A stretch of DNA of 64,000 nucleotides from an uncultured bacterium (GCA_963696395.1 CAVOJZ010000002.1:6433-70432); one strand, 5' to 3'; shown: positions 24,763 to 48,558, counted from the first letter of the stretch. Notes: generated by a model not told the origin, from the letters alone. Numbers and translations: made by a program.

Positions 24763-25960
24763 TTGAGGTGAGTCCGAGCGATGCTTTACGCAGCGAGTCC
24801 TCGATCATCGTCGTCATTCCCTCCTTCAACGCCGCTTCTTTAATCTCCTGCGCCGTTGCCCGATTCATAATCAACTGGCGGATACTGTCGGTCACCTCAA
24901 GAACTTCGCGCACGCCGAGACGACCCTGGAACCCGCTGCCGTTGCACTCCGCACATCCCTGCGCCCTGTAAAACTTCATTTCGGGACGCAGCGTGGGAAT
25001 AAGCTCCATCAGACTTTTGAATTCGTCGAGTGAAAGCTTCCGGTCGGCTTTGCACTTTTGGCAAAGCTTTCGAACCAGTCGTTGCCCGATCGCAACATTC
25101 ACGGTTGACGCGACGAGGAATGACGGCACGCCCATATCGAGCAACCGCGGGAACGTTGTCGCCGAATCGTTCGTGTGGAGCGTGGAGAGCACCAGGTGGC
25201 CGGTTAAAGCTGCGTTCACGGCGATGCCAGCCGTTTCTTCGTCGCGGATTTCGCCGACCATCACAATATTAGGATCTTGGCGCAGGATGGAACGCAGTCC
25301 GTTTGCAAAAGTAAATCCGATTTCCGCATTCGTTTGAATCTGGGTAATGCCATCGAGCGAATACTCAATCGGATCTTCGATGGTGATGATCGAAACTTCC
25401 GAACTGTTTAATTGCTTGAGTAACGTATAGAGCGTTGTGGTTTTACCGGAACCCGTGGGACCATTCGCCAGGATCATGCCATACGGCTTCCCGACAGCGC
25501 CGACAACTTTCTTAAGGTCTGCCGGACTGAATCCTAAATCTTTCAACTCATAATTTTGCGTTCCGGCCAATACACGTAGAATGGCATTCTCTCCATAGTA
25601 GGTCGGGATGATCGAAACACGGACGTCAACGTCTCCGAAATCTTTTATTTCGATGCGAAGCCGTCCGTCCTGCGGCAACAAGTGTTCATCGGTGCGGATT
25701 CCCGAAAGCACTTTGATGCGACTGATGATCTCCGGATGTAATTTGATATCAATCTTCTTCGGGAAGACATCGTACAAAAGGCCGTCGATGCGGTACCGAA
25801 CCCGTAATGCGTCTTTGGTTGGTTCGATGTGAATGTCGGATGCGTTCGCAATGTAAGCGTACTCAACGAACAAATCGACGAGGTTAATGATGGAAATACT
25901 CTCAAGCGGTTCCTCGAGTAATTTCTCAATAATAGGAGCAAGCGATTTGATATCGCGCAT
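24731..25960 (-). CDS. pilB: Type IV pilus assembly ATPase (PilB/GspE family)
   Basis: Walker A NGPTGSGKTTTLYTLL, Asp box, His box and a CxxC tetracysteine (CQKC...CAEC). Confidence 0.85.
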   Translation of the reverse strand: MRDIKSLAPIIEKLLEEPLESISIINLVDLFVEYAYIANASDIHIEPTKDALRVRYRIDGLLYDVFPKKIDIKLHPEIISRIKVLSGIRTDEHLLPQDGRLRIEIKDFGDVDVRVSIIPTYYGENAILRVLAGTQNYELKDLGFSPADLKKVVGAVGKPYGMILANGPTGSGKTTTLYTLLKQLNSSEVSIITIEDPIEYSLDGITQIQTNAEIGFTFANGLRSILRQDPNIVMVGEIRDEETAGIAVNAALTGHLVLSTLHTNDSATTFPRLLDMGVPSFLVASTVNVAIGQRLVRKLCQKCKADRKLSLDEFKSLMELIPTLRPEMKFYRAQGCAECNGSGFQGRLGVREVLEVTDSIRQLIMNRATAQEIKEAALKEGMTTMIEDSLRKASLGLTSIEEILRVVHE

Positions 25961-26005
25961 GATTTCATTGTATCATAAGACCGCGCGCGTTCTTCCGTAT
26001 TATTT

Positions 26006-26076
26006 TGCCGGGTCGTCTAATGGTAGGACAACGGACTCTGAATCCGTTTATCTTGGTTCGAATCCAGGCCCGGCAG
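26006..26076 (+). tRNA. tRNA-Gln (anticodon CTG), U1:A72, CCA not encoded
   Basis: TGCCGGG acceptor, D-arm GTCT/GGAC, anticodon stem ACGGA/TCCGT with loop CTCTGAA, T-arm CTTGG-TTCGAAT-CCAGG, 3' CCCGGCA-G. Confidence 0.85.
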
Positions 26077-26464
26077 CAGCAATCTGACTCAAGTCTTTTT
26101 CAGAAAAATTCAGCCGCGCTTCGCGGAGCGAAGCGTATGGTGGGGTGGGGGTAAATTCGATACGGCGGTTTTTGAGAAAGATGTTCGAGCCGAAAATTTG
26201 TTGAAGGGAGGTCTTTTTTGCAATTAGGTCGGTATTGGTTGCCGTTTCGGTAAGCAATACCGCGTTTTTTATCCATTCTCGCGTTGGTTCGAGCCAACTT
26301 CCGGCGTTCTGTTCAAGACGGGCTATTTGCTCCTCGACCGACTTCCTTTCGGAGAGTATCTTGGCACGTTTTTTAAGGTAACTTTCCCGCTCAATATCTT
26401 GCGCAAGATACGTATCGAGCAGTCGGTCGAACTTGCGGGAGAGGTCTTGCGCCTTTCCCCGCAA
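26048..26464 (-). pseudogene. Serine-recombinase-like C-terminal fragment (integrase remnant) abutting/overlapping the tRNA-Gln 3' end
   Basis: DRLLDTYLAQDIERESYLKKRAKILSERKSVEEQIARLEQ resembles the coiled-coil motif of large serine recombinases. There is no catalytic N-terminal domain, and the ORF runs into the tRNA. Confidence 0.4.
26060..26077 (+). repeat. Direct repeat copy 1 (tRNA-Gln 3' end; att-like)
   Basis: GAATCCAGGCCCGGCAGC. Confidence 0.5.
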
Positions 26465-26632
26465 CTCTTGAACGAACGCCGCCGTTTTTCTGGACTCGTC
26501 CAGGACTGGAATCGAACGAGCGGAAGGGGTCGGGGAACCGCGATCGGTTCCCCGTGTAGGAGGGCCGCGTTCTTACGCGACGGTTCGGAACCGAGGGTTC
26601 CGAAAGCGCAGACGCGAAGCGGCGAGCAGTGA

Positions 26633-26650
26633 GATTCCAGGCCCGGCAGC
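26633..26650 (+). repeat. Direct repeat copy 2 (17/18 identical to the tRNA-Gln 3' end; att-like)
   Basis: GATTCCAGGCCCGGCAGC, 573 bp downstream of copy 1. Confidence 0.5.
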
Positions 26651-26716
26651 TAGACAAAATAGCATTATTATGCTATTTTAATTTCGGTTCATTGCAAACA
26701 AAGAATTGGAGGTGTG

Positions 26717-27064
26717 ATGCACGAAATAATTGAAAATGCGACCGTGATGCTTCCCATTCGAGATATCCGCTTTGTAAATGGCGGACCATATCTCACACAA
26801 GAGACGCTCTTGGAACAACTCATTGAACTTGGCTTCCGTTTCGAGGGGGCAATAGATGAAGACGGACGTCAGTCAGCAACGCTACCGAAAGATTGGCTGT
26901 TCGATGGGGACCGGGAATCGACGCACTGGCACATCCACGACGATCGCGGCCGTCATCGAATGACGTACATCAAGAAAATTCCTTGGGGAAATCACGACTT
27001 TGTTCATTTCCTCATGATCGAACCAGCAATCCCCAACGCGAAAAGCATTTCCGACGGGTGGTAA
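26717..27064 (+). CDS. Hypothetical protein (about 115 aa), His-rich segment
   Basis: GGAGG lies 5 nt upstream of the ATG. The product has no family I recognise (HWHIHDDRGRH...H..H). Confidence 0.45.
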   Translation: MHEIIENATVMLPIRDIRFVNGGPYLTQETLLEQLIELGFRFEGAIDEDGRQSATLPKDWLFDGDRESTHWHIHDDRGRHRMTYIKKIPWGNHDFVHFLMIEPAIPNAKSISDGW

Positions 27065-27152
27065 CCAACCGAAAGGCGCACGCCTAGCTCACACTAGAAA
27101 CGGCGCCTATTTCTTTATTTAAAATCGTTCGAACATCGTCCGTTCCGACAGC

Positions 27153-27181
27153 TTGACAGAATATTAATATAATGTTATCAT
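27153..27181 (+). promoter_or_regulatory. Sigma70-like promoter (TTGACA-17-TATCAT) preceded by a repeated motif
   Basis: cagcTTGACAga at 27153-27158. The upstream GTTCGAACATCGTCCGTTCCGAC element is repeated at 28228-28250. Confidence 0.4.
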
Positions 27182-27200
27182 CTCCTCAGCGAAGTGAAGC

Positions 27201-27479
27201 ATGCAAATGATCTTAAAGAGGGATTGGGACGCTATTGACGCAACCGATCCGAAGAACAACACCTACACCACGATTCCTGCTGGAACACACGACGTGGAGA
27301 GAATTCCTTGCCCAACCGGACATGACTGCAATTGGCTCGTACTCAAGGGAACGAAAATCGGAGCAAGCGAAGGATCGTGGCGCCAATGGGCACCCGGTCA
27401 AATCGTTGATGATTCAGATCGCCCAAATTTCGGAAAAGTGATCGACTGGGAAGAAGCCACCGTTGTCATCGTCGATTAA
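27201..27479 (+). CDS. Hypothetical protein (92 aa)
   Basis: ORF downstream of the promoter. Weak SD. Confidence 0.4.
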   Translation: MQMILKRDWDAIDATDPKNNTYTTIPAGTHDVERIPCPTGHDCNWLVLKGTKIGASEGSWRQWAPGQIVDDSDRPNFGKVIDWEEATVVIVD

Positions 27480-27601
27480 TTAACCCGCCAAATGGAAACC
27501 CATTGCTTGGCGGGTTTCTATTTTACGCAAAACTTATTTTCTCCATCTCCAACCCCACCTTCATCCAATCCACGGTTCTAAACGTGACCAGTAGGGGCAG
27601 C

Positions 27602-27630
27602 TTGACAGATAGCAATTTTGGATGTAAAAT
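27602..27630 (+). promoter_or_regulatory. Sigma70-like promoter TTGACA-17-TAAAAT
   Basis: cagcTTGACAgat...TAAAAT. AGGAG and ATG 27649 follow. Confidence 0.45.
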
Positions 27631-27648
27631 ATGCTTAGGAGATTTATC

Positions 27649-27873
27649 ATGCCAAGGAAAATACATTCGGTGGTTTTAGGCGTGGGAGCTATTACGGCTT
27701 TTTCTCTCGCTTTTCTTATGGTGAGAGATATGCGCTCCCAAGCTGGCGTCGGCCTCTTTGAGCCAACCCCCTATGACTCAACGGAAATCACGATAGCTCG
27801 GATCGGATTGGGGTTGATAGTTTTCAGCGTTATCATCTGGCCGTGGCATCGCAAAACAAAAAACAGTCTCTGA
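27649..27873 (+). CDS. Small membrane protein (about 74 aa, two TM helices)
   Basis: AGGAG lies 8 nt upstream. Product MPRKIHSVVLGVGAITAFSLAFLMV...GLGLIVFSVIIWPW. Confidence 0.45.
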   Translation: MPRKIHSVVLGVGAITAFSLAFLMVRDMRSQAGVGLFEPTPYDSTEITIARIGLGLIVFSVIIWPWHRKTKNSL

Positions 27874-27912
27874 CTCAGGTGCCCTATCTGGCACTTCCCT
27901 AGCGGAGGGGTT

Positions 27913-28101
27913 ATGTTCACGCATAAGAAATTGAAAAAGTTAGAAAAACGTGTGAAAAAGCTGCTCGCCGCCATCGGGCGATTCGTTAACCCAAATGATG
28001 CGATTCGGATCGACCGTCCCCTATCCCACGGAGAAACATTCAAAGTTTATCTGTGCCTGAGTTCAAACGAACCCTTCGTCTTAGGCCGCGCAAGGACATA
28101 G
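27913..28101 (+). CDS. Small basic hypothetical protein (62 aa)
   Basis: GGAGGGG lies 4 nt upstream of the ATG. The N-terminus is Lys-rich. Confidence 0.4.
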   Translation: MFTHKKLKKLEKRVKKLLAAIGRFVNPNDAIRIDRPLSHGETFKVYLCLSSNEPFVLGRART

Positions 28102-28117
28102 GTAGCAGCGCTCATCG

Positions 28118-28876
28118 ATGCAATCACAAACGTCCGCACTCGCAAGCGAGATTCAATACCATTCGATAAGATTTACTAAGCCCCGTTGTTTATTGTGGCT
28201 TTTGTTTTATTCAAAACAGTTCGAACATCCCCCAATCCGACCGTTTACTTTTCGGCTCAAATACGCTATAAGAAAACCAGAACTTCACACGAGGTGCTCA
28301 ACGAATATCAAACTGCTCCTGCCGAAAGCGGCCGTTTTCATCGAGCCGCACGATAGAGTTTTCTTTATCGGCGGTCCTGTACTTGGCGGGGGTGACTGGC
28401 AATGCGAAGCCATCCGCCACATTGCGATGCATGCTCCAGGGTCGTATGTAGTTTGCCCCTGTCGCTACGAATCCGACCATCCGCTTTACCGTTTTTCCAT
28501 CCAAGGCGCGGACGAAGCTTGCTGGATATCAAAAGGATTTAAGCCATTCCTCAGCCAAACGCTCTGGGAACGGTTTTATCTTGACGTGGCGAACGAACAA
28601 GGATCGATCATCTTTTGGTTAGGAAAGGAAAGCACGATACATCCCCGGCCGCCGAAGACCGAACCGTACGCGAGGGACACTTATGGCGAGATCGGCGAGT
28701 GGCGGGCGCGGATGTTTTACGACAACGCGCGCGTGGTTGTCGGAGCAAGCCCAGAATTTCCGGGGCTGTCGGTGATCAAAAAGAATTTCGATGCGATGCC
28801 CGGGCCTTCATTCCCTATTCACGAAACTCTCCTTGATACCGTCAAAGCAGCCGTGGCCGTCGCGAACAAGAGATAG
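28118..28876 (+). CDS. Hypothetical protein with Gly-rich Rossmann-like segment (VFFIGGPVLGGGDWQ); start codon uncertain
   Basis: Long ORF. A promoter-like repeat copy lies inside its 5' part (28213-28282), so the true start may be downstream (non-ATG) or the repeat is coding. Confidence 0.4.
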   Translation: MQSQTSALASEIQYHSIRFTKPRCLLWLLFYSKQFEHPPIRPFTFRLKYAIRKPELHTRCSTNIKLLLPKAAVFIEPHDRVFFIGGPVLGGGDWQCEAIRHIAMHAPGSYVVCPCRYESDHPLYRFSIQGADEACWISKGFKPFLSQTLWERFYLDVANEQGSIIFWLGKESTIHPRPPKTEPYARDTYGEIGEWRARMFYDNARVVVGASPEFPGLSVIKKNFDAMPGPSFPIHETLLDTVKAAVAVANKR

Positions 28877-29040
28877 TTACCAAGTATTACGCCGATCCAA
28901 GAGGATCGGCTTTTTATATGAGACTCGCCTTTTCCATCTCCAGTCCGGCACTAGACCGAGGAACACAGCTCTTGACAGAAGCTATATTATTGGTTACTGT
29001 TTATTTAGCACCGAAATTCAAGCTCGTTGGAGAAACCTTT

Positions 29041-29259
29041 ATGAAACGACTCTATTTTTCGATTGACGGCTGCCAATTCGTGTCTGACCCGCTCACTCTT
29101 GAAAAGGCTCGCGAGGTAGAAAGTGTGCTGAAGACATGTGGGATCGTCTGCCGCTCTGCAGATGGCAACCTCACGGTGGTCGTGACAAGCGAAGCGGAAC
29201 GAGCGGCTGTCATGGTCGAAAGCTTCCTCCGGTTGGGGAAAGACAGCATCGGCCAGTAA
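29041..29259 (+). CDS. Small hypothetical protein (72 aa)
   Basis: GGAGA lies 7 nt upstream of the ATG. TTGACA at 28972. A terminator follows. Confidence 0.4.
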   Translation: MKRLYFSIDGCQFVSDPLTLEKAREVESVLKTCGIVCRSADGNLTVVVTSEAERAAVMVESFLRLGKDSIGQ

Positions 29260-29276
29260 GCAATTTACTCCTATAA

Positions 29277-29303
29277 GCCCCGCGTTCTTGCGGGGTTTTT
29301 CTT
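29277..29303 (+). terminator. Intrinsic terminator
   Basis: AGCCCCGC-gttctt-GCGGGG followed by TTTTT. Confidence 0.6.
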
Positions 29304-29368
29304 ATGTTCAGCTTGTGCTTTCTTATATCTTTGTTAGTATTGAGAAAGTTTTTATATGGGGGTGAACT

Positions 29369-30355
29369 TTGTCAAAACGAAAATCCAGCACAGAGCGAGC
29401 CTTCGATTCCATTTTAGAAATCGTTGGTACGTTGCAACCGGAATTTGAAGAAATTTTTCGAACTCTTGTGGTTACGACCCGTTCTTTCATCTCTTTCTGC
29501 AATTCGGAAAGTGATTCGGAGCGAAAACGGCAGATGCAAGATGAAATTGCAGATGTATTTGTAAAAAATGTCAGAATCAGCAAAAAGCTTGAAGATGTCA
29601 TCCGGCCAGGCCTTTTGAGACTCGAGAGCGAGATCCGACGATTTGAAACGCAACGCGATGAATCGCGGCGCGTCACACGTAACCTCGCGAGGAGAAACAG
29701 AAAAATTCGGGCGAAAGGGCGCCAGGATGTTCTCCTGACTAAATTGCTCAACAAAAAAGCTTTTGCCGAGGAATTTCTTTCTTTGCTTGCAGGTCCCCAC
29801 CGCAGAGGCTTTGAACAATCTCTGTCACATGGCTTTTCGGCTTATTGCCTCCTGGATCTGAAAAAGTTCAAACAGATCAACGACCGAACTCGAAGTCATG
29901 AGATTGGAGACAAAGTGCTCAAACACATTGAATCCTGCATGGTGGAGAGCATCCGTACCGAGCACGAGGGCGACATCCTGGGACGGGTGGGAGGAGACGA
30001 ATTTGGCGTTCTCATGCAGGGCCTCTCGGGCCGTGAACCCATTTTCGAAATTCTTCGGCGCTTCCGGCGTGCCGTGAGAGATCATGGTTGGATCGACCGC
30101 CAGAAACTTCCCGTAACCTTGAAAGAAATGGTTGATGTGGACGCCGGCGTCATCTACTGGAAAAATATTGGCTCTTTGCCGGCAAAGCAATCTTCTGCGA
30201 AGCTTCGGACAGAGATCGAATTTTACGGAGATGAAGCAATGTACCGAGCAAAGAATTTTAGTAGTCACGGGGCAGTGATCTGCTGGGAGGGCGTGTTAAA
30301 AAACGGTAAATTTCGCCTTCTGAACAAAGAGACAAGCGGACCTGAATTATTGTGA
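29369..30355 (+). CDS. GGDEF-domain protein (putative diguanylate cyclase) with N-terminal helical/coiled-coil region
   Basis: LLDLKKFKQINDRTRSHEIGDKVLK...GRVGGDEFGVLM...YRAKNFSS are canonical GGDEF-domain blocks. TTG start. No RxxD I-site. Confidence 0.8.
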   Translation: MSKRKSSTERAFDSILEIVGTLQPEFEEIFRTLVVTTRSFISFCNSESDSERKRQMQDEIADVFVKNVRISKKLEDVIRPGLLRLESEIRRFETQRDESRRVTRNLARRNRKIRAKGRQDVLLTKLLNKKAFAEEFLSLLAGPHRRGFEQSLSHGFSAYCLLDLKKFKQINDRTRSHEIGDKVLKHIESCMVESIRTEHEGDILGRVGGDEFGVLMQGLSGREPIFEILRRFRRAVRDHGWIDRQKLPVTLKEMVDVDAGVIYWKNIGSLPAKQSSAKLRTEIEFYGDEAMYRAKNFSSHGAVICWEGVLKNGKFRLLNKETSGPELL

Positions 30356-32900: not shown

Positions 32901-34136
32901 CTAACGACGACGACCGGAACGATAAGGAGGTCGCTGGCCCGGCCTACGATAGCCTCGTTGAGGGCGGCGTTGTTCCCGTTCCATCACAGGTGGAGGAAAA
33001 GACGAAGGTGGCGGAGGCGGCAGTACCGGCGTGCGGGTCACTGGCAACGTTGATCGCGTGAGGCGTTCAATGGCCTGGACGTCGCGGCGCTCATCCGGGC
33101 GGGCAAACGAAATGGCGTGGCCCTTGCCTCCGGCGCGGCCGGTACGGCCGATGCGATGAACGTAGTCCTCGGCAACCGTTGGAAGATCGTAATTGATGAC
33201 AAGTTCGATGTTGTGCACGTCAATGCCCCGCGCCGCGATATCGGTTGCAGCAAGCACGCGGTATTTGCCGTTCTTGAATCCATCCAAAGCTTCGCGGCGT
33301 TGGTTAAGCGAGCGGTTCGAATGCATCTCGGCCGCGGTATGTCCAAGAGAACGAAGGTGCGCCGCGATTTTCTTAGCTGCAAATTTTGTCCTCGAAAAAA
33401 TCAGAACCGATCCACGATATTCCTGTAAAATCTTTTCCAGCAATCTCGGCTTTTCCGGCTGAGTTACGATAAAAAGTTCCTGTGTCACGTCTTTGGCTGC
33501 GGTTCCGGGGCGGGCAATTTCCACACGCACCGGAAGCTTTAAAAATGCCCGGGCCATGGAAACGATTGATTCCGGCATCGTTGCCGAAAAAAGCATCGTC
33601 TGCCGCTCGTGAGGCAGCACCGCAAGAATTCGCTTGAGCTGCGGCGCAAAGCCCATGTCGAGCATGCGATCGGCTTCATCGAGAACGACGACACTTACTG
33701 CTTTCAAATTTACGGTTTTCTGTTCCAGATGATCAATAAGCCTTCCGGGCGTTGCGAGGAGAATCTGAGGCTTTCGATCGAGATCTCGCAGTTGCTTTCT
33801 GATCGGCTCACCGCCGATAAGCACTGCGGTTTTGATTCCCAAAAATCCTCCAACACTGCGAAGCGATTCATCAACCTGCACCGCAAGCTCCCGCGTCGGC
33901 AAAAGAACAAGCGCACGACGACGGCTGTCGGCCAAAATACTCTGGATTAAAGGAATCCCGAATGCGAGCGTTTTCCCCGTGCCGGTTTGAGCGATGCCCA
34001 TCATATCTTTCCCTTCGATCGCCTGCGGAATCGATTGCTGTTGAATCGGCGTCGGCTCCGTAAAGTGAAGCTTATCGAGAACCGAAAGAATATTCGGTGC
34101 GATGCCAAGGCCGCGGAAACTTGATTGATTGTTCAT
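32901..34136 (-). CDS. DEAD-box ATP-dependent RNA helicase
   Basis: AQTGTGKT, PTRELA, DEAD, SAT and HRIGRTGRAG motifs. C-terminal RG-rich tail. Confidence 0.9.
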   Translation of the reverse strand: MNNQSSFRGLGIAPNILSVLDKLHFTEPTPIQQQSIPQAIEGKDMMGIAQTGTGKTLAFGIPLIQSILADSRRRALVLLPTRELAVQVDESLRSVGGFLGIKTAVLIGGEPIRKQLRDLDRKPQILLATPGRLIDHLEQKTVNLKAVSVVVLDEADRMLDMGFAPQLKRILAVLPHERQTMLFSATMPESIVSMARAFLKLPVRVEIARPGTAAKDVTQELFIVTQPEKPRLLEKILQEYRGSVLIFSRTKFAAKKIAAHLRSLGHTAAEMHSNRSLNQRREALDGFKNGKYRVLAATDIAARGIDVHNIELVINYDLPTVAEDYVHRIGRTGRAGGKGHAISFARPDERRDVQAIERLTRSTLPVTRTPVLPPPPPSSFPPPVMEREQRRPQRGYRRPGQRPPYRSGRRR

Positions 34137-46005: not shown

Positions 46006-47247
46006 TTATCCAAATGTAAAGGTAAATGCCTCGAGACCCGGTGAGTCAACGATGAGCTCGAGGGTATGCACCCCCGAACCGTCGTGGTTGCTCACCAGAT
46101 TGTACAGCCGACTTGATGTAATTGTTACTTTTCCGTTCACGACGTCGCTTCCGGCATCAGCCGCTGAAATCGGCACCCCATCCTGCATGACTTCGACGGT
46201 CACCCCGCCCGCAGGTGCGCCCGCACCTGCGCTCGCGACCATATACATTTTTGCAGAATCATAGCTGTAGAGGACCGTAGCGCCTGCCTGAAGATTTGTG
46301 GCATATTCGTCTTCGAAATCCCAGTTGCCTCCCAAGTAGAGTCGATTTACAGTGACGCCAGTGCTTCCCGGCAATACAAGATTCTGCGGGCCGTTCACCA
46401 TCGGATTACCGTTCGCAAGTAAAGCGTTTCGATTTGCGCCGAAATAGGTCTCCGGACTGTTAATGCCCGAAAGATCGGCCGGCGCGATGTTCACCGTTGA
46501 CGTCGACACCGCCGTCGACAATCCGAGCACCGAAGCCCGCTCGGCAAGCAAATTCTGTATTTCCGCTTCGGTTTCATCGTAATCACCCTCGCCAACATGA
46601 TCGTGGACGATATAACCCGCAATATCGATCAGATATTCATGTGGCCAATAGAGATTCCCATACGCATTCCATGTTCCATAGTCGCTGTCGAGGACAATTG
46701 GATACTGAATGTTATATTGCTTTGCAGCAGCCTGCACGTTAACGATATTTTTTTCGAAATCAAATTCCGGCGTATGAATCCCCACGATTTCCAATCCTTC
46801 GTTCTGATATTTCTGATACCACGCCGTGAGATACGGCAACGTCCTGATGCAGTTGACGCAACTATAGGTCCAGAAATCGAGCAAGATCACTTTCTTCCCG
46901 ATCAAACTCCTCAGGGTGAAATTGGATGGTGCGTTTACAAACCCGGTTGGATCGGCGATTTCGATTGCCGGTTTGTAACCGGCTTTCGCATCCGCGGAAG
47001 CGACTGCTTGCAATGAAGTATTCATCGCCACGGTAGTCCCGGCCGGGGCACCGCCGCTCGAAGCGACGTTTCCTGTTGAGGTCGGGATAGACGCTGCGGT
47101 TGAGCTTGCCGCTGCGGGACCGATTGGCGAAACATTAATTGCCTGTCCGTTGCCCGATGTCGAAGGATGAGCCTGGATGCTTTCGAGATACCAGATAGCG
47201 CCTATGATCAGAATCAACACAACGACGAGCCCGATTTTTTTATTCAT
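46006..47247 (-). CDS. Membrane-anchored thioredoxin-fold (TlpA/redoxin-like) protein with extra C-terminal domain
   Basis: N-terminal TM. WTYSCVNCIRTLP is a CxxC thioredoxin-fold motif. Adjacent to ccdA. Confidence 0.7.
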   Translation of the reverse strand: MNKKIGLVVVLILIIGAIWYLESIQAHPSTSGNGQAINVSPIGPAAASSTAASIPTSTGNVASSGGAPAGTTVAMNTSLQAVASADAKAGYKPAIEIADPTGFVNAPSNFTLRSLIGKKVILLDFWTYSCVNCIRTLPYLTAWYQKYQNEGLEIVGIHTPEFDFEKNIVNVQAAAKQYNIQYPIVLDSDYGTWNAYGNLYWPHEYLIDIAGYIVHDHVGEGDYDETEAEIQNLLAERASVLGLSTAVSTSTVNIAPADLSGINSPETYFGANRNALLANGNPMVNGPQNLVLPGSTGVTVNRLYLGGNWDFEDEYATNLQAGATVLYSYDSAKMYMVASAGAGAPAGGVTVEVMQDGVPISAADAGSDVVNGKVTITSSRLYNLVSNHDGSGVHTLELIVDSPGLEAFTFTFG

Positions 47248-47992: not shown

Positions 47993-48355
47993 TTATAATT
48001 TTATTTTTCCGTAAATCAATGCTGTGACTTTTGTGAGAATCATGACTGAAAGACCGGCAATCAACCACGGGTCAAGCGCATGCGCCAGCTCCTGAATAAC
48101 AATAGCAATGATAAACGCCGCTGAGCCCGCGAGATAAGCAATTCGATCAGCAAACAGGCGATGAAACTCTTCCCTCTCGTCGCCGCGGCTTTCGTTCCAT
48201 AAAAATATGGCAAATATCCCAAAGAGAACCACAATGCCGATAAGCAGTCCCATGACGACGAATCCGGGCATAAAAACATTCCATGGATTAAAAATAATAA
48301 ACAATAGCACGAGCAACCCGACCCCGATCACAAGCTCTCCTTTTACGTTCTTCAT
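47993..48355 (-). CDS. Small membrane protein paired with an XRE regulator (DUF2178-like arrangement)
   Basis: 120 aa, 4 TM. Overlaps the upstream HTH gene by 4 bp. Confidence 0.5.
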   Translation of the reverse strand: MKNVKGELVIGVGLLVLLFIIFNPWNVFMPGFVVMGLLIGIVVLFGIFAIFLWNESRGDEREEFHRLFADRIAYLAGSAAFIIAIVIQELAHALDPWLIAGLSVMILTKVTALIYGKIKL

Positions 48356-48558
48356 GACGATAAATAAAAAATGTTTTCGACGGGTTTTTTGAAAAACCGG
48401 GAAATTTTAAGGGCGAGCAAAACAGAAGGGATGTAATTCCCCTTTTCAATTGCAATAACCGTTTGCCGGCTCACGCCAATTTTGGCGGCGAGTTCTTCCT
48501 GGGTCAGATGCGCTTCCGTTCTGACGTCATAAACATTATTTACAACCTCTGCTTCCAT
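48352..48558 (-). CDS. XRE-family helix-turn-helix transcriptional regulator
   Basis: LTQEELAAKIGVSRQTVIAIEKG. Confidence 0.75.
   Translation of the reverse strand: MEAEVVNNVYDVRTEAHLTQEELAAKIGVSRQTVIAIEKGNYIPSVLLALKISRFFKKPVENIFYLSS

Follow-up and report, generated by a model that had tools for sequence, protein, structure and literature searches.

The stretch of DNA analysed here (64,000 nucleotides from an uncultured bacterium, GCA_963696395.1, CAVOJZ010000002.1:6433-70432; hereafter referred to as the window) carries, just past a short repeat of the 3' end of a tRNA-Gln gene, a run of small genes on the plus strand, which we designate g1 to g6. The initial annotation had described six such genes, each with its own promoter, as a candidate uncharacterised system acquired by horizontal transfer. 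ORF (open reading frame) calling in the window located all six ORFs precisely where they had been placed. The products are listed below, g5 being given in the corrected form that is justified in a later section.

The six genes and their transcription signals

26717..27064, plus strand: g1, 115 amino acids (aa), member of a small unnamed family (11 relatives), codon score +0.117
27201..27479, plus strand: g2, 92 aa, all-beta protein of an unnamed family (15 homologues, AlphaFold2 model)
27649..27873, plus strand: g3, 74 aa, two hydrophobic segments, codon score -0.003 (ambiguous)
27913..28101, plus strand: g4, 62 aa, Lys-rich N-terminus, codon score +0.022 (weak)
28301..28876, plus strand: g5 core, approximately 191 aa, nucleoside 2-deoxyribosyltransferase (NDT)-like and related to PF15891 (homology and structure model)
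29041..29259, plus strand: g6, 72 aa, codon score +0.071 (coding-like)

Alternative upstream starts lengthen three of these ORFs (26714 for g1, 27631 for g3 and 28918 for g6). A host-trained codon model prefers the annotated frame of g1, g2, g5 and g6 (positive scores), and the GC content is the same inside and outside the run (0.47-0.52 over the run and its flanks). No paralogues of the six proteins are encoded elsewhere in the 64-kb window.

The following signals accompany the genes:

overlapping 26656..26679, plus strand: promoter-like site of g1, TAGACA-17-TATTTT, with TG, 9/12 (promoter scan)
27071..27113, plus strand: terminator-like hairpin and T-rich run after g1 (-16.3 kcal/mol, z-score -3.5)
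27153..27181, plus strand: promoter of g2, TTGACA-17-TATCAT, with TG, 11/12 (promoter scan)
27482..27516, plus strand: terminator hairpin after g2 (-20 kcal/mol, z-score -4.3)
27539..27551, plus strand: box TTCTCCATCTCCA upstream of the g3 promoter, with its sole exact partner in the window at 28930
27602..27630, plus strand: promoter of g3-g4, TTGACA-17-TAAAAT, 11/12 (promoter scan)
28245..28273, plus strand: promoter of g5, TTTACT-17-TATAAG, read from the sequence, inside the annotated 5' part of a 252-aa ORF
28891..28910, plus strand: terminator hairpin after g5 (z-score -4.7)
28930..28942, plus strand: box TTTTCCATCTCCA upstream of the g6 -35 box (exact-match search)
28972..28977, plus strand: -35 box of g6, TTGACA within CTTGACAGA, with a poor -10 box (TACTGT, 3/6 by eye) and not listed in the promoter scan
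29275..29298, plus strand: terminator hairpin after g6, at the end of the run (terminator scan and folding)

The three perfect TTGACA -35 boxes reported earlier are indeed present upstream of g2, g3 and g6, and all of them lie within the extended sequence CTTGACAGA, which occurs exactly three times in the window (27152, 27601 and 28971, each on the plus strand). Two of these boxes belong to near-consensus promoters (27153 and 27602; 11/12), and the whole window contains four sites of such quality. Hairpins followed by T-runs are found after g1, g2, g5 and g6 (z-scores of -3.1 to -4.7), with a weak hairpin after g4; the T-rich run behind the g1 hairpin also forms the first bases of a repeat that is discussed below. 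The TTYTCCATCTCCA box occurs in its exact form twice in the 64 kb, both times with a terminator on one side and a CTTGACAGA -35 box on the other, the distance to the latter being approximately 50 nucleotides (nt) for g3 and 30 nt for g6.

The promoter-like sites thus bear out the claim of individual promoters, with the difference that g4, which is probably co-transcribed with g3, is grouped with that gene. From these sites and the hairpins we infer five transcription units, [g1], [g2], [g3-g4], [g5] and [g6]. In our preferred reading, to which we assign a probability of roughly 0.6, the region consists of these separately transcribed units in a chromosome of Patescibacteria (candidate phyla radiation, CPR) and does not represent one system.

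Gene model and families of the encoded proteins

The start of g5, originally annotated as a 252-aa ORF (28118..28876), had been suspected to be mis-set. A search with this protein returned its own entry and 84 relatives, almost all of them 180-205 aa long and covering the C-terminal 75% (approximately) of the query, so that their alignment begins at about residue 62 of the window protein (TNIKLLLPK). The 28118-28300 stretch has a non-coding codon score (-0.185 per codon), in comparison with +0.098 for the g5 core. Furthermore, the promoter located within the annotated 5' part is conserved in the two closest orthologous loci, L059 (TTTACT-17-TATAAC) and L060 (TTTATT-17-TATAAA). Taken together, the start of the homologues, the codon score and the conserved internal promoter confirm the suspicion. 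The 252-aa form appears to have wrongly taken in the promoter of its own gene, and the true protein is predicted to be of about 191 aa.

Where the orthologues start with GTG or ATG, the window has ACG (28301), situated six bases past the GAGG of a Shine-Dalgarno sequence (GAGGTG, 28291-28296); further start candidates are ATC at 28307 and CTG at 28313. Because all residues that are invariant in the family have been kept, g5 probably uses a non-AUG start or, alternatively, ATG 28118 on read-through transcripts. It is also conceivable that the ACG is a sequencing error. Locus L001, the one other copy of this DNA and considered as an independent check on the codon, was dropped, since it is 100% identical to the window.

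The AlphaFold2 model of g5 (pLDDT 96.4, 69 sequences) has the flavodoxin-like three-layer alpha/beta fold of the NDT-like superfamily (PF15891 / PF05014). In a Foldseek search, the top three matches in the PDB were chains of 4mcj (E-values of 1.7e-4 to 3.1e-4, TM-scores of 0.65-0.70 on the target), followed by weaker matches to DNPH1, a TIR domain and the retron Ec86 effector complex. At the sequence level, 5 of the 23 members of the g5 family examined match PF15891 (best E-value 8.3e-7), the window protein itself having no Pfam match at E <= 1. Comparison of the family profile with the 4mcj sequence gave an E-value of 0.18, with the signature fLAGP..GG.DWQ ... Q..WE aligned. Residues D126 and E130 (core numbering; within the stretch DTYGELG) are invariant in 69 sequences, and they may correspond to the Asp/Glu loop, following the fourth strand, that contains the catalytic glutamate (the nucleophile) of NDT and DNPH1. 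The g5 protein may be a salvage enzyme that targets the N-glycosidic bond of nucleosides or nucleotides. A literature search on PF15891, or on deoxyribosyltransferases in the CPR, yielded nothing relevant.

Two other observations concern the distribution of this family. In two Patescibacteria genomes a single contig carries two g5-type genes (L019/L023 on JBBUAP010000001.1 and L020/L033 on JADGRH010000002.1). A distant relative (28.5% identity over 90% of the core, E 1e-10) is encoded at 46091-46522 of LR756500.1, a 462-kb uncultured phage whose record is without annotation.

The product of g2 belongs to a family which has so far received no name. Its 15 homologues share 55-70% identity and have a strongly conserved core with 13 invariant columns (alignment A5). 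The AlphaFold2 model (pLDDT 96.1) is an all-beta fold, for which no significant match was found in the PDB or BFVD; likewise, neither the comparison of the g2 profile with PDB sequences nor a Pfam scan of each family member gave a credible result. On three longer contigs the g2 homologues adjoin ribonucleotide reductase, dCMP deaminase and a Suf cluster (one case each), and a tie of g2 to nucleotide metabolism is hinted at. A promoter of the type TTGAC(A/T)-17-TATCAT is likewise located upstream of the g2 homologues in L051 and L052. In L050 the homologue lies immediately upstream of the ribonucleotide reductase gene. The L052 contig (783-9560) comprises many small genes on the same strand, including those for NTP_transf_6, a methyltransferase, dCMP deaminase and a kinase-like protein (AAA_18/AAA_33).

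For g1, an exhaustive protein search identified, apart from the query's own entry, 11 relatives (31-46% identity), in which the pattern LPxGW...DxxGRxR...KxPWG...GW is conserved (alignment A2). No credible similarity was detected when each member of this family was scanned against Pfam or when its profile was compared with the PDB. On the short contigs that carry such relatives (six examined, 0.6-1.3 kb), the neighbouring sequence is either a gene for a tRNA synthetase or an S1-domain gene together with a tRNA 3' end. Directly after the tRNA-Gln repeat of the window, a 24-nt palindrome, AAAATAGCATTATTATGCTATTTT (26656..26679, 11/12 pairs), occupies the spacer and the -10 box of the g1 promoter-like site and looks like an operator; no comparable palindrome is present upstream of those g1 homologues whose upstream regions could be read.

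The initial annotation had stated that none of the six proteins resembles a nameable family. This holds in part. It does not apply to g5, given the PF15891 matches of its relatives, nor to g1 and g2, both of which have homologues.

The remaining three genes are singleton clusters at 90% identity. The product of g3 looks like a membrane peptide, and g4 is preceded by GGAGGGG, 3-9 nt upstream of its start. Low-sensitivity searches (pattern scans, as well as tblastn searches of phages and of the loci retrieved) found no relatives of g3, g4 or g6, a result which should be read as "no relatives found" and not as proof that none exist. The viral and metagenome pattern scans, which require exact 8-residue words and consequently reveal only close relatives, were negative for g1, g2, g3, g4 and g6, and tblastn of g4 and g6 against phages produced no match.

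These data raise the question of whether g3, g4 and perhaps g6 are non-genes, and g5 a decaying pseudogene devoid of a start codon. Such a view could draw on the ambiguous and weak codon scores of g3 and g4, on the failure to find relatives of any of the three ORFs, and on the ACG that stands where the orthologues of g5 have GTG or ATG. We nevertheless consider it unlikely. Both g3 and g4 have good, properly spaced Shine-Dalgarno sequences, the former also a near-consensus promoter, and g6 scores as coding. As for g5, it has retained each family-invariant residue over 191 codons without a stop, and its translation could be initiated either from a non-AUG codon or from ATG 28118, in the latter case on transcripts passing the weak terminator after g4.

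The repeat upstream of g2 and g5

The repeated motif noted in the initial annotation is present in two copies:

27107..27154, plus strand: motif copy 1, with GTTCGAAC at 27127-27134, ending at the -35 box of g2
28199..28246, plus strand: motif copy 2, with GTTCGAAC at 28219-28226, ending at the -35 box of g5, inside the annotated 252-aa ORF

The two copies are identical at 36 of 48 positions without gaps, and the best pair of 48-mers in 200 dinucleotide shuffles of the region 26651-29370 reached only 32/48. The repeat is therefore genuine; the coordinates originally given for its second copy were approximately 10 nt off. The palindrome reported in both copies, GTTCGAAC, was found as described, and occurs in the window only there, once per copy. 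Its background in the fetched loci is 9 occurrences in 716 kb (0.013 per kb). Both copies run in the same register into a -35 box, a 17-nt spacer and a -10 box (TTGACA/TATCAT for g2 and TTTACT/TATAAG for g5), which identifies them as paralogous promoter-upstream segments. Folding revealed no RNA structure in either copy (z-score of -0.6 for copy 1). The possibility that the repeat is an integron cassette or a miniature inverted-repeat transposable element was rejected, as it has no inverted-repeat structure.

On our interpretation, the 48-nt element would comprise a T-rich tract (the tail of the preceding terminator), the GTTCGAAC box, whose centre lies approximately 57 nt ahead of the predicted start of transcription, and the bases leading into the -35 box. 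It most probably provides a shared binding site, which would couple the expression of g2 and g5. The element is probably either a cis-regulatory site common to both promoters or a promoter that was duplicated, and a regulatory role is thus possible. The proposal of a shared operator made in the initial annotation is reasonable to this extent, since the motif does precede two promoters, but a duplicated promoter segment fits equally well.

The orthologous loci are informative in this respect. In L060-L062 the gene orthologous to g5 (57% protein identity) is preceded by ATCGTTCGAAC and CATCGTCCcaTTCCG, in the order ATCGTTCGAAC, about 26 extra bases and CATCGTCCCATTCCG, which echoes the ATCGTTCGAAC-ATCGTCCGTTCCG of copy 1 in the window. 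If the 48-nt repeat and the smaller boxes were neutral relics of a local duplication of a terminator-promoter segment, and not protein-binding sites, this ATCGTTCGAAC...CATCGTCC arrangement would not be expected, as neutral non-coding sequence should not last over such a distance. Nor would one expect the blocky conservation that is observed, with 21/24 identity in the core TTTATTYAAAAYNGTTCGAACATC and diverged flanks. On the other hand, the 64 kb contain only two copies, whose identity extends in the same register across the entire segment from the terminator tail to the promoter. The palindrome, at 8 bp, is short for a dimeric regulator, and L059, the closest g5 orthologue, lacks it. We regard the neutral explanation as doubtful, albeit a serious competitor: the motif-like sequence of L060-L062, known from one lineage only, speaks for a cis-element of long standing in the g5 promoter and against a recent neutral duplication.

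A more specific possibility, which we put forward as a speculation with the odds well against it, is that GTTCGAAC serves as the operator of a Patescibacteria regulator coupling the NDT-fold salvage enzyme g5 to g2. Two of the three g2 homologues with mapped neighbours adjoin ribonucleotide reductase or dCMP deaminase. Were it true, g2 and g5 would form a small regulon for nucleotide salvage in organisms without de novo nucleotide synthesis. As a separate observation, the window encodes an XRE-type helix-turn-helix protein of 68 aa (containing LTQEELAAKIGVSRQTVIAIEKGN) at 48352-48558 on the minus strand, approximately 20 kb from the run. It is probably the XRE regulator that the initial annotation had named as a candidate ligand of the motif; nothing ties it to the motifs.

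The tRNA-Gln scar and the origin of the run

Upstream of g1 the following features were identified:

26006..26077, plus strand: tRNA-Gln (CTG) gene, integration target (ARAGORN; Rfam tRNA, 63 bits)
26048..26464, minus strand: ORF with similarity to the C-terminal region of a large serine integrase (phrog_95 "integrase", E 3e-4, covering 463-551 of the 651 profile positions)
26633..26650, plus strand: direct repeat of the 3'-terminal 18 nt of tRNA-Gln, 17/18 identical, distal end of the scar

The att-like repeat mentioned in the initial annotation thus corresponds to the last 18 nt of the tRNA gene recurring at 26633-26650. The pair formed with 26060-26077 amounts to two matches, in comparison with 0.06 expected, and a third copy of GATTCCAGGCCCGGCAGC was not found in the window at up to 3 mismatches. 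The repeats bound a segment of 570 bp, and g1-g6 begin past its distal end. The integrase-like ORF located between the two repeats is a putative remnant of an integrated element; its match to phrog_95 is weak, and Pfam, the PDB and tblastn against phages added no further support. The scar also contains, on the opposite strand, a 14-nt inverted copy of the tRNA 3'-end repeat (26500-26513 versus 26633-26646, CCAGGACTGGAATC / GATTCCAGGCCCGG; 86% complementary), which may be the remnant of a second att site or a tRNA fragment. Apart from the tRNA and terminator-like noise, an Rfam search of 25900-29450 at a permissive threshold detected nothing.

Contigs carrying g1 homologues shed some light on the order of events. 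In L057 (1-130) and L058 (1-131) the homologue (P0112) lies approximately 100 nt downstream of an apparent tRNA 3' end (GGGTGTTCGATTCACCC...), and the 10-mer ACAAAATAGC is common to this upstream region and to the window just past the tRNA-Gln repeat (26633-26662). The tRNA 3' end and the 10-mer near a g1 homologue suggest an old order, "tRNA, then g1", which the insertion of the 570-bp scar later interrupted. On our preferred reading, the run represents native chromosomal DNA situated just outside the remnant of an element formerly integrated at tRNA-Gln, with g5 as a stand-alone enzyme-like protein of NDT fold, g1 and g2 as members of small conserved families, and g3, g4 and g6 as lineage-specific ORFs.

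The initial annotation had called for a search for co-occurrence of the six genes in other genomes. For g5 we used 48 genome loci (+/-8-10 kb), derived from Patescibacteria-type metagenome-assembled genomes with the exception of a few bins labelled otherwise. When g1-g4 and g6 were compared with these loci by tblastn, none was found, and the same was true of the shorter contigs L059-L062. Similarly, no other gene of the run is present beside the relatives of g2 (3 loci) or those of g1 (the six short contigs mentioned above). No pair of the six genes was therefore found together in the genomes examined, the test resting on g1, g2 and g5, as there were no known relatives of g3, g4 and g6 to be included. 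The neighbours of the g5 relatives were surveyed at 49 loci (the 48 plus L059 and L060, minus the truncated L049, owing to the E-value cut). They encode UvrA, Mur ligases, FtsI, RsmH, EF-G and similar proteins, with no recurrent partner, and the closest relatives adjoin the genes of ribosomal proteins S10 and L19. Apparent synteny of g5 and g2 relatives with genes for ABC-F and PilB, and with the gene at 32901-34136, was rejected. About 40 loci of 16 kb in genomes of approximately 0.9 Mb lead one to expect around 0.7 chance co-localisations per gene, and one or two cases hence do not constitute evidence.

Searches with the six proteins against Pfam, PHROGs, PADLOC and NCBIfam gave no usable match, and in the case of the PADLOC defence models no match at E <= 1. 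A type II toxin-antitoxin pair is not apparent either: only g3 and g4 seem to be co-transcribed, and neither matches a Pfam, NCBIfam or PADLOC model. The initial annotation would have given up its proposal if the genes proved to be conserved core genes with ordinary annotations at syntenic positions in related genomes, and the motif to be missing from the orthologous loci. The first point holds in part, as three genes (g1, g2 and g5) come from conserved families in ordinary chromosomal settings; the second does not, a motif-like sequence preceding one g5 orthologue.

These results can be set against the view that g1-g6 constitute one co-regulated module (defence, toxin-antitoxin or phage morons), acquired horizontally at a tRNA-Gln hot spot. 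It is true that the run adjoins the tRNA-Gln repeat and the integrase-like fragment. Moreover, its units each have their own promoter and four of the five a clear terminator, as morons do, and they share boxes, not only CTTGACAGA, found three times here and nowhere else in the 64 kb, but also those common to the promoters of g2 and g5, and of g3 and g6. NDT-fold domains, furthermore, are known to act as effectors of certain defence systems, and the weak fold matches of g5 include the retron Ec86 effector complex. Against this, no two of the genes co-occur in about 60 related loci, the g5 relatives lie amid housekeeping genes without a partner, and the homologues of g2 and g5 keep the same private promoters in unrelated contexts. 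PADLOC and PHROG matches are lacking for all six proteins, and phage and viral searches were negative but for the one 28.5% match of g5 in the 462-kb uncultured phage. Finally, GC content and codon usage are without anomaly, and all six genes lie outside the sole segment bounded by repeats. Co-inheritance as an acquired module, as originally proposed, therefore appears very improbable.

Several points nonetheless weigh against our own reading, in which the run is a series of independent native units. All six genes have the same orientation and three of them share the extended -35 box CTTGACAGA, which could reflect a shared history or a shared regulator. A tRNA gene with an integrase scar alongside is typical of variable regions, and the comparison loci include no genome of the same genus, in which presence or absence of the run could be seen. 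A conserved pairing may be hidden among g3, g4 and g6, these three having been searched with low-sensitivity methods only. With regard to the 48-nt element, GTTCGAAC is missing upstream of g5 not only in L059 but also in all the more distant orthologues, and a neutral local duplication accounts equally well for the presence of just two copies in the window.

No defence, toxin-antitoxin or moron discovery follows from this run, and a specialist would find nothing surprising in it; what retains some interest is the motif, along with the probable non-AUG start of g5 and the g2 fold, which matched no structure. What has been gained is, in the first place, a corrected gene model, in which the 252-aa ORF gives way to an NDT-fold protein of about 191 aa, whose family occurs widely in Patescibacteria and could be relevant to how these organisms acquire or recycle nucleotides. 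In addition, g1 and g2 represent two unnamed but clearly conserved families of small proteins, the latter with a very confident all-beta model to which no known structure corresponds. The promoter-upstream motif, which is statistically solid and common to two otherwise unrelated genes, could help to probe the regulation of transcription in an uncultivated lineage.

With respect to known systems, the locus resembles tRNA-linked islands in that its tRNA-Gln gene is accompanied by an integrase-like fragment and by an 18-nt direct repeat of the tRNA 3' end. Unlike in such islands, the repeats enclose no more than 570 bp and bracket that fragment only, g1-g6 lie beyond the distal repeat, no third repeat exists in the window, and GC content and codon usage are host-like. 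A promoter-like site and a terminator hairpin flank each of the g1, g2, g5 and g6 units, an arrangement also known from phage morons; the units differ from these in that there is no prophage and there are no phage genes around the run, and in that the homologues of g1, g2 and g5 are found amid housekeeping genes. The closest parallel is that between g5 and PF15891 (Nuc_deoxyri_tr2), of which a structure has been solved (PDB 4mcj, BDI_0649 of Parabacteroides distasonis, a putative nucleoside deoxyribosyltransferase). The identity of g5 to 4mcj is 16-18%, and g5 is approximately 40 residues longer, with extra elements (TM-score on the query 0.53-0.56); its CPR subfamily contains no member of known substrate or activity. 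The two nevertheless have in common the flavodoxin-like alpha/beta fold (Foldseek E 2e-4) and the N-terminal signature fLAGP..GG.DWQ ... Q..WE.

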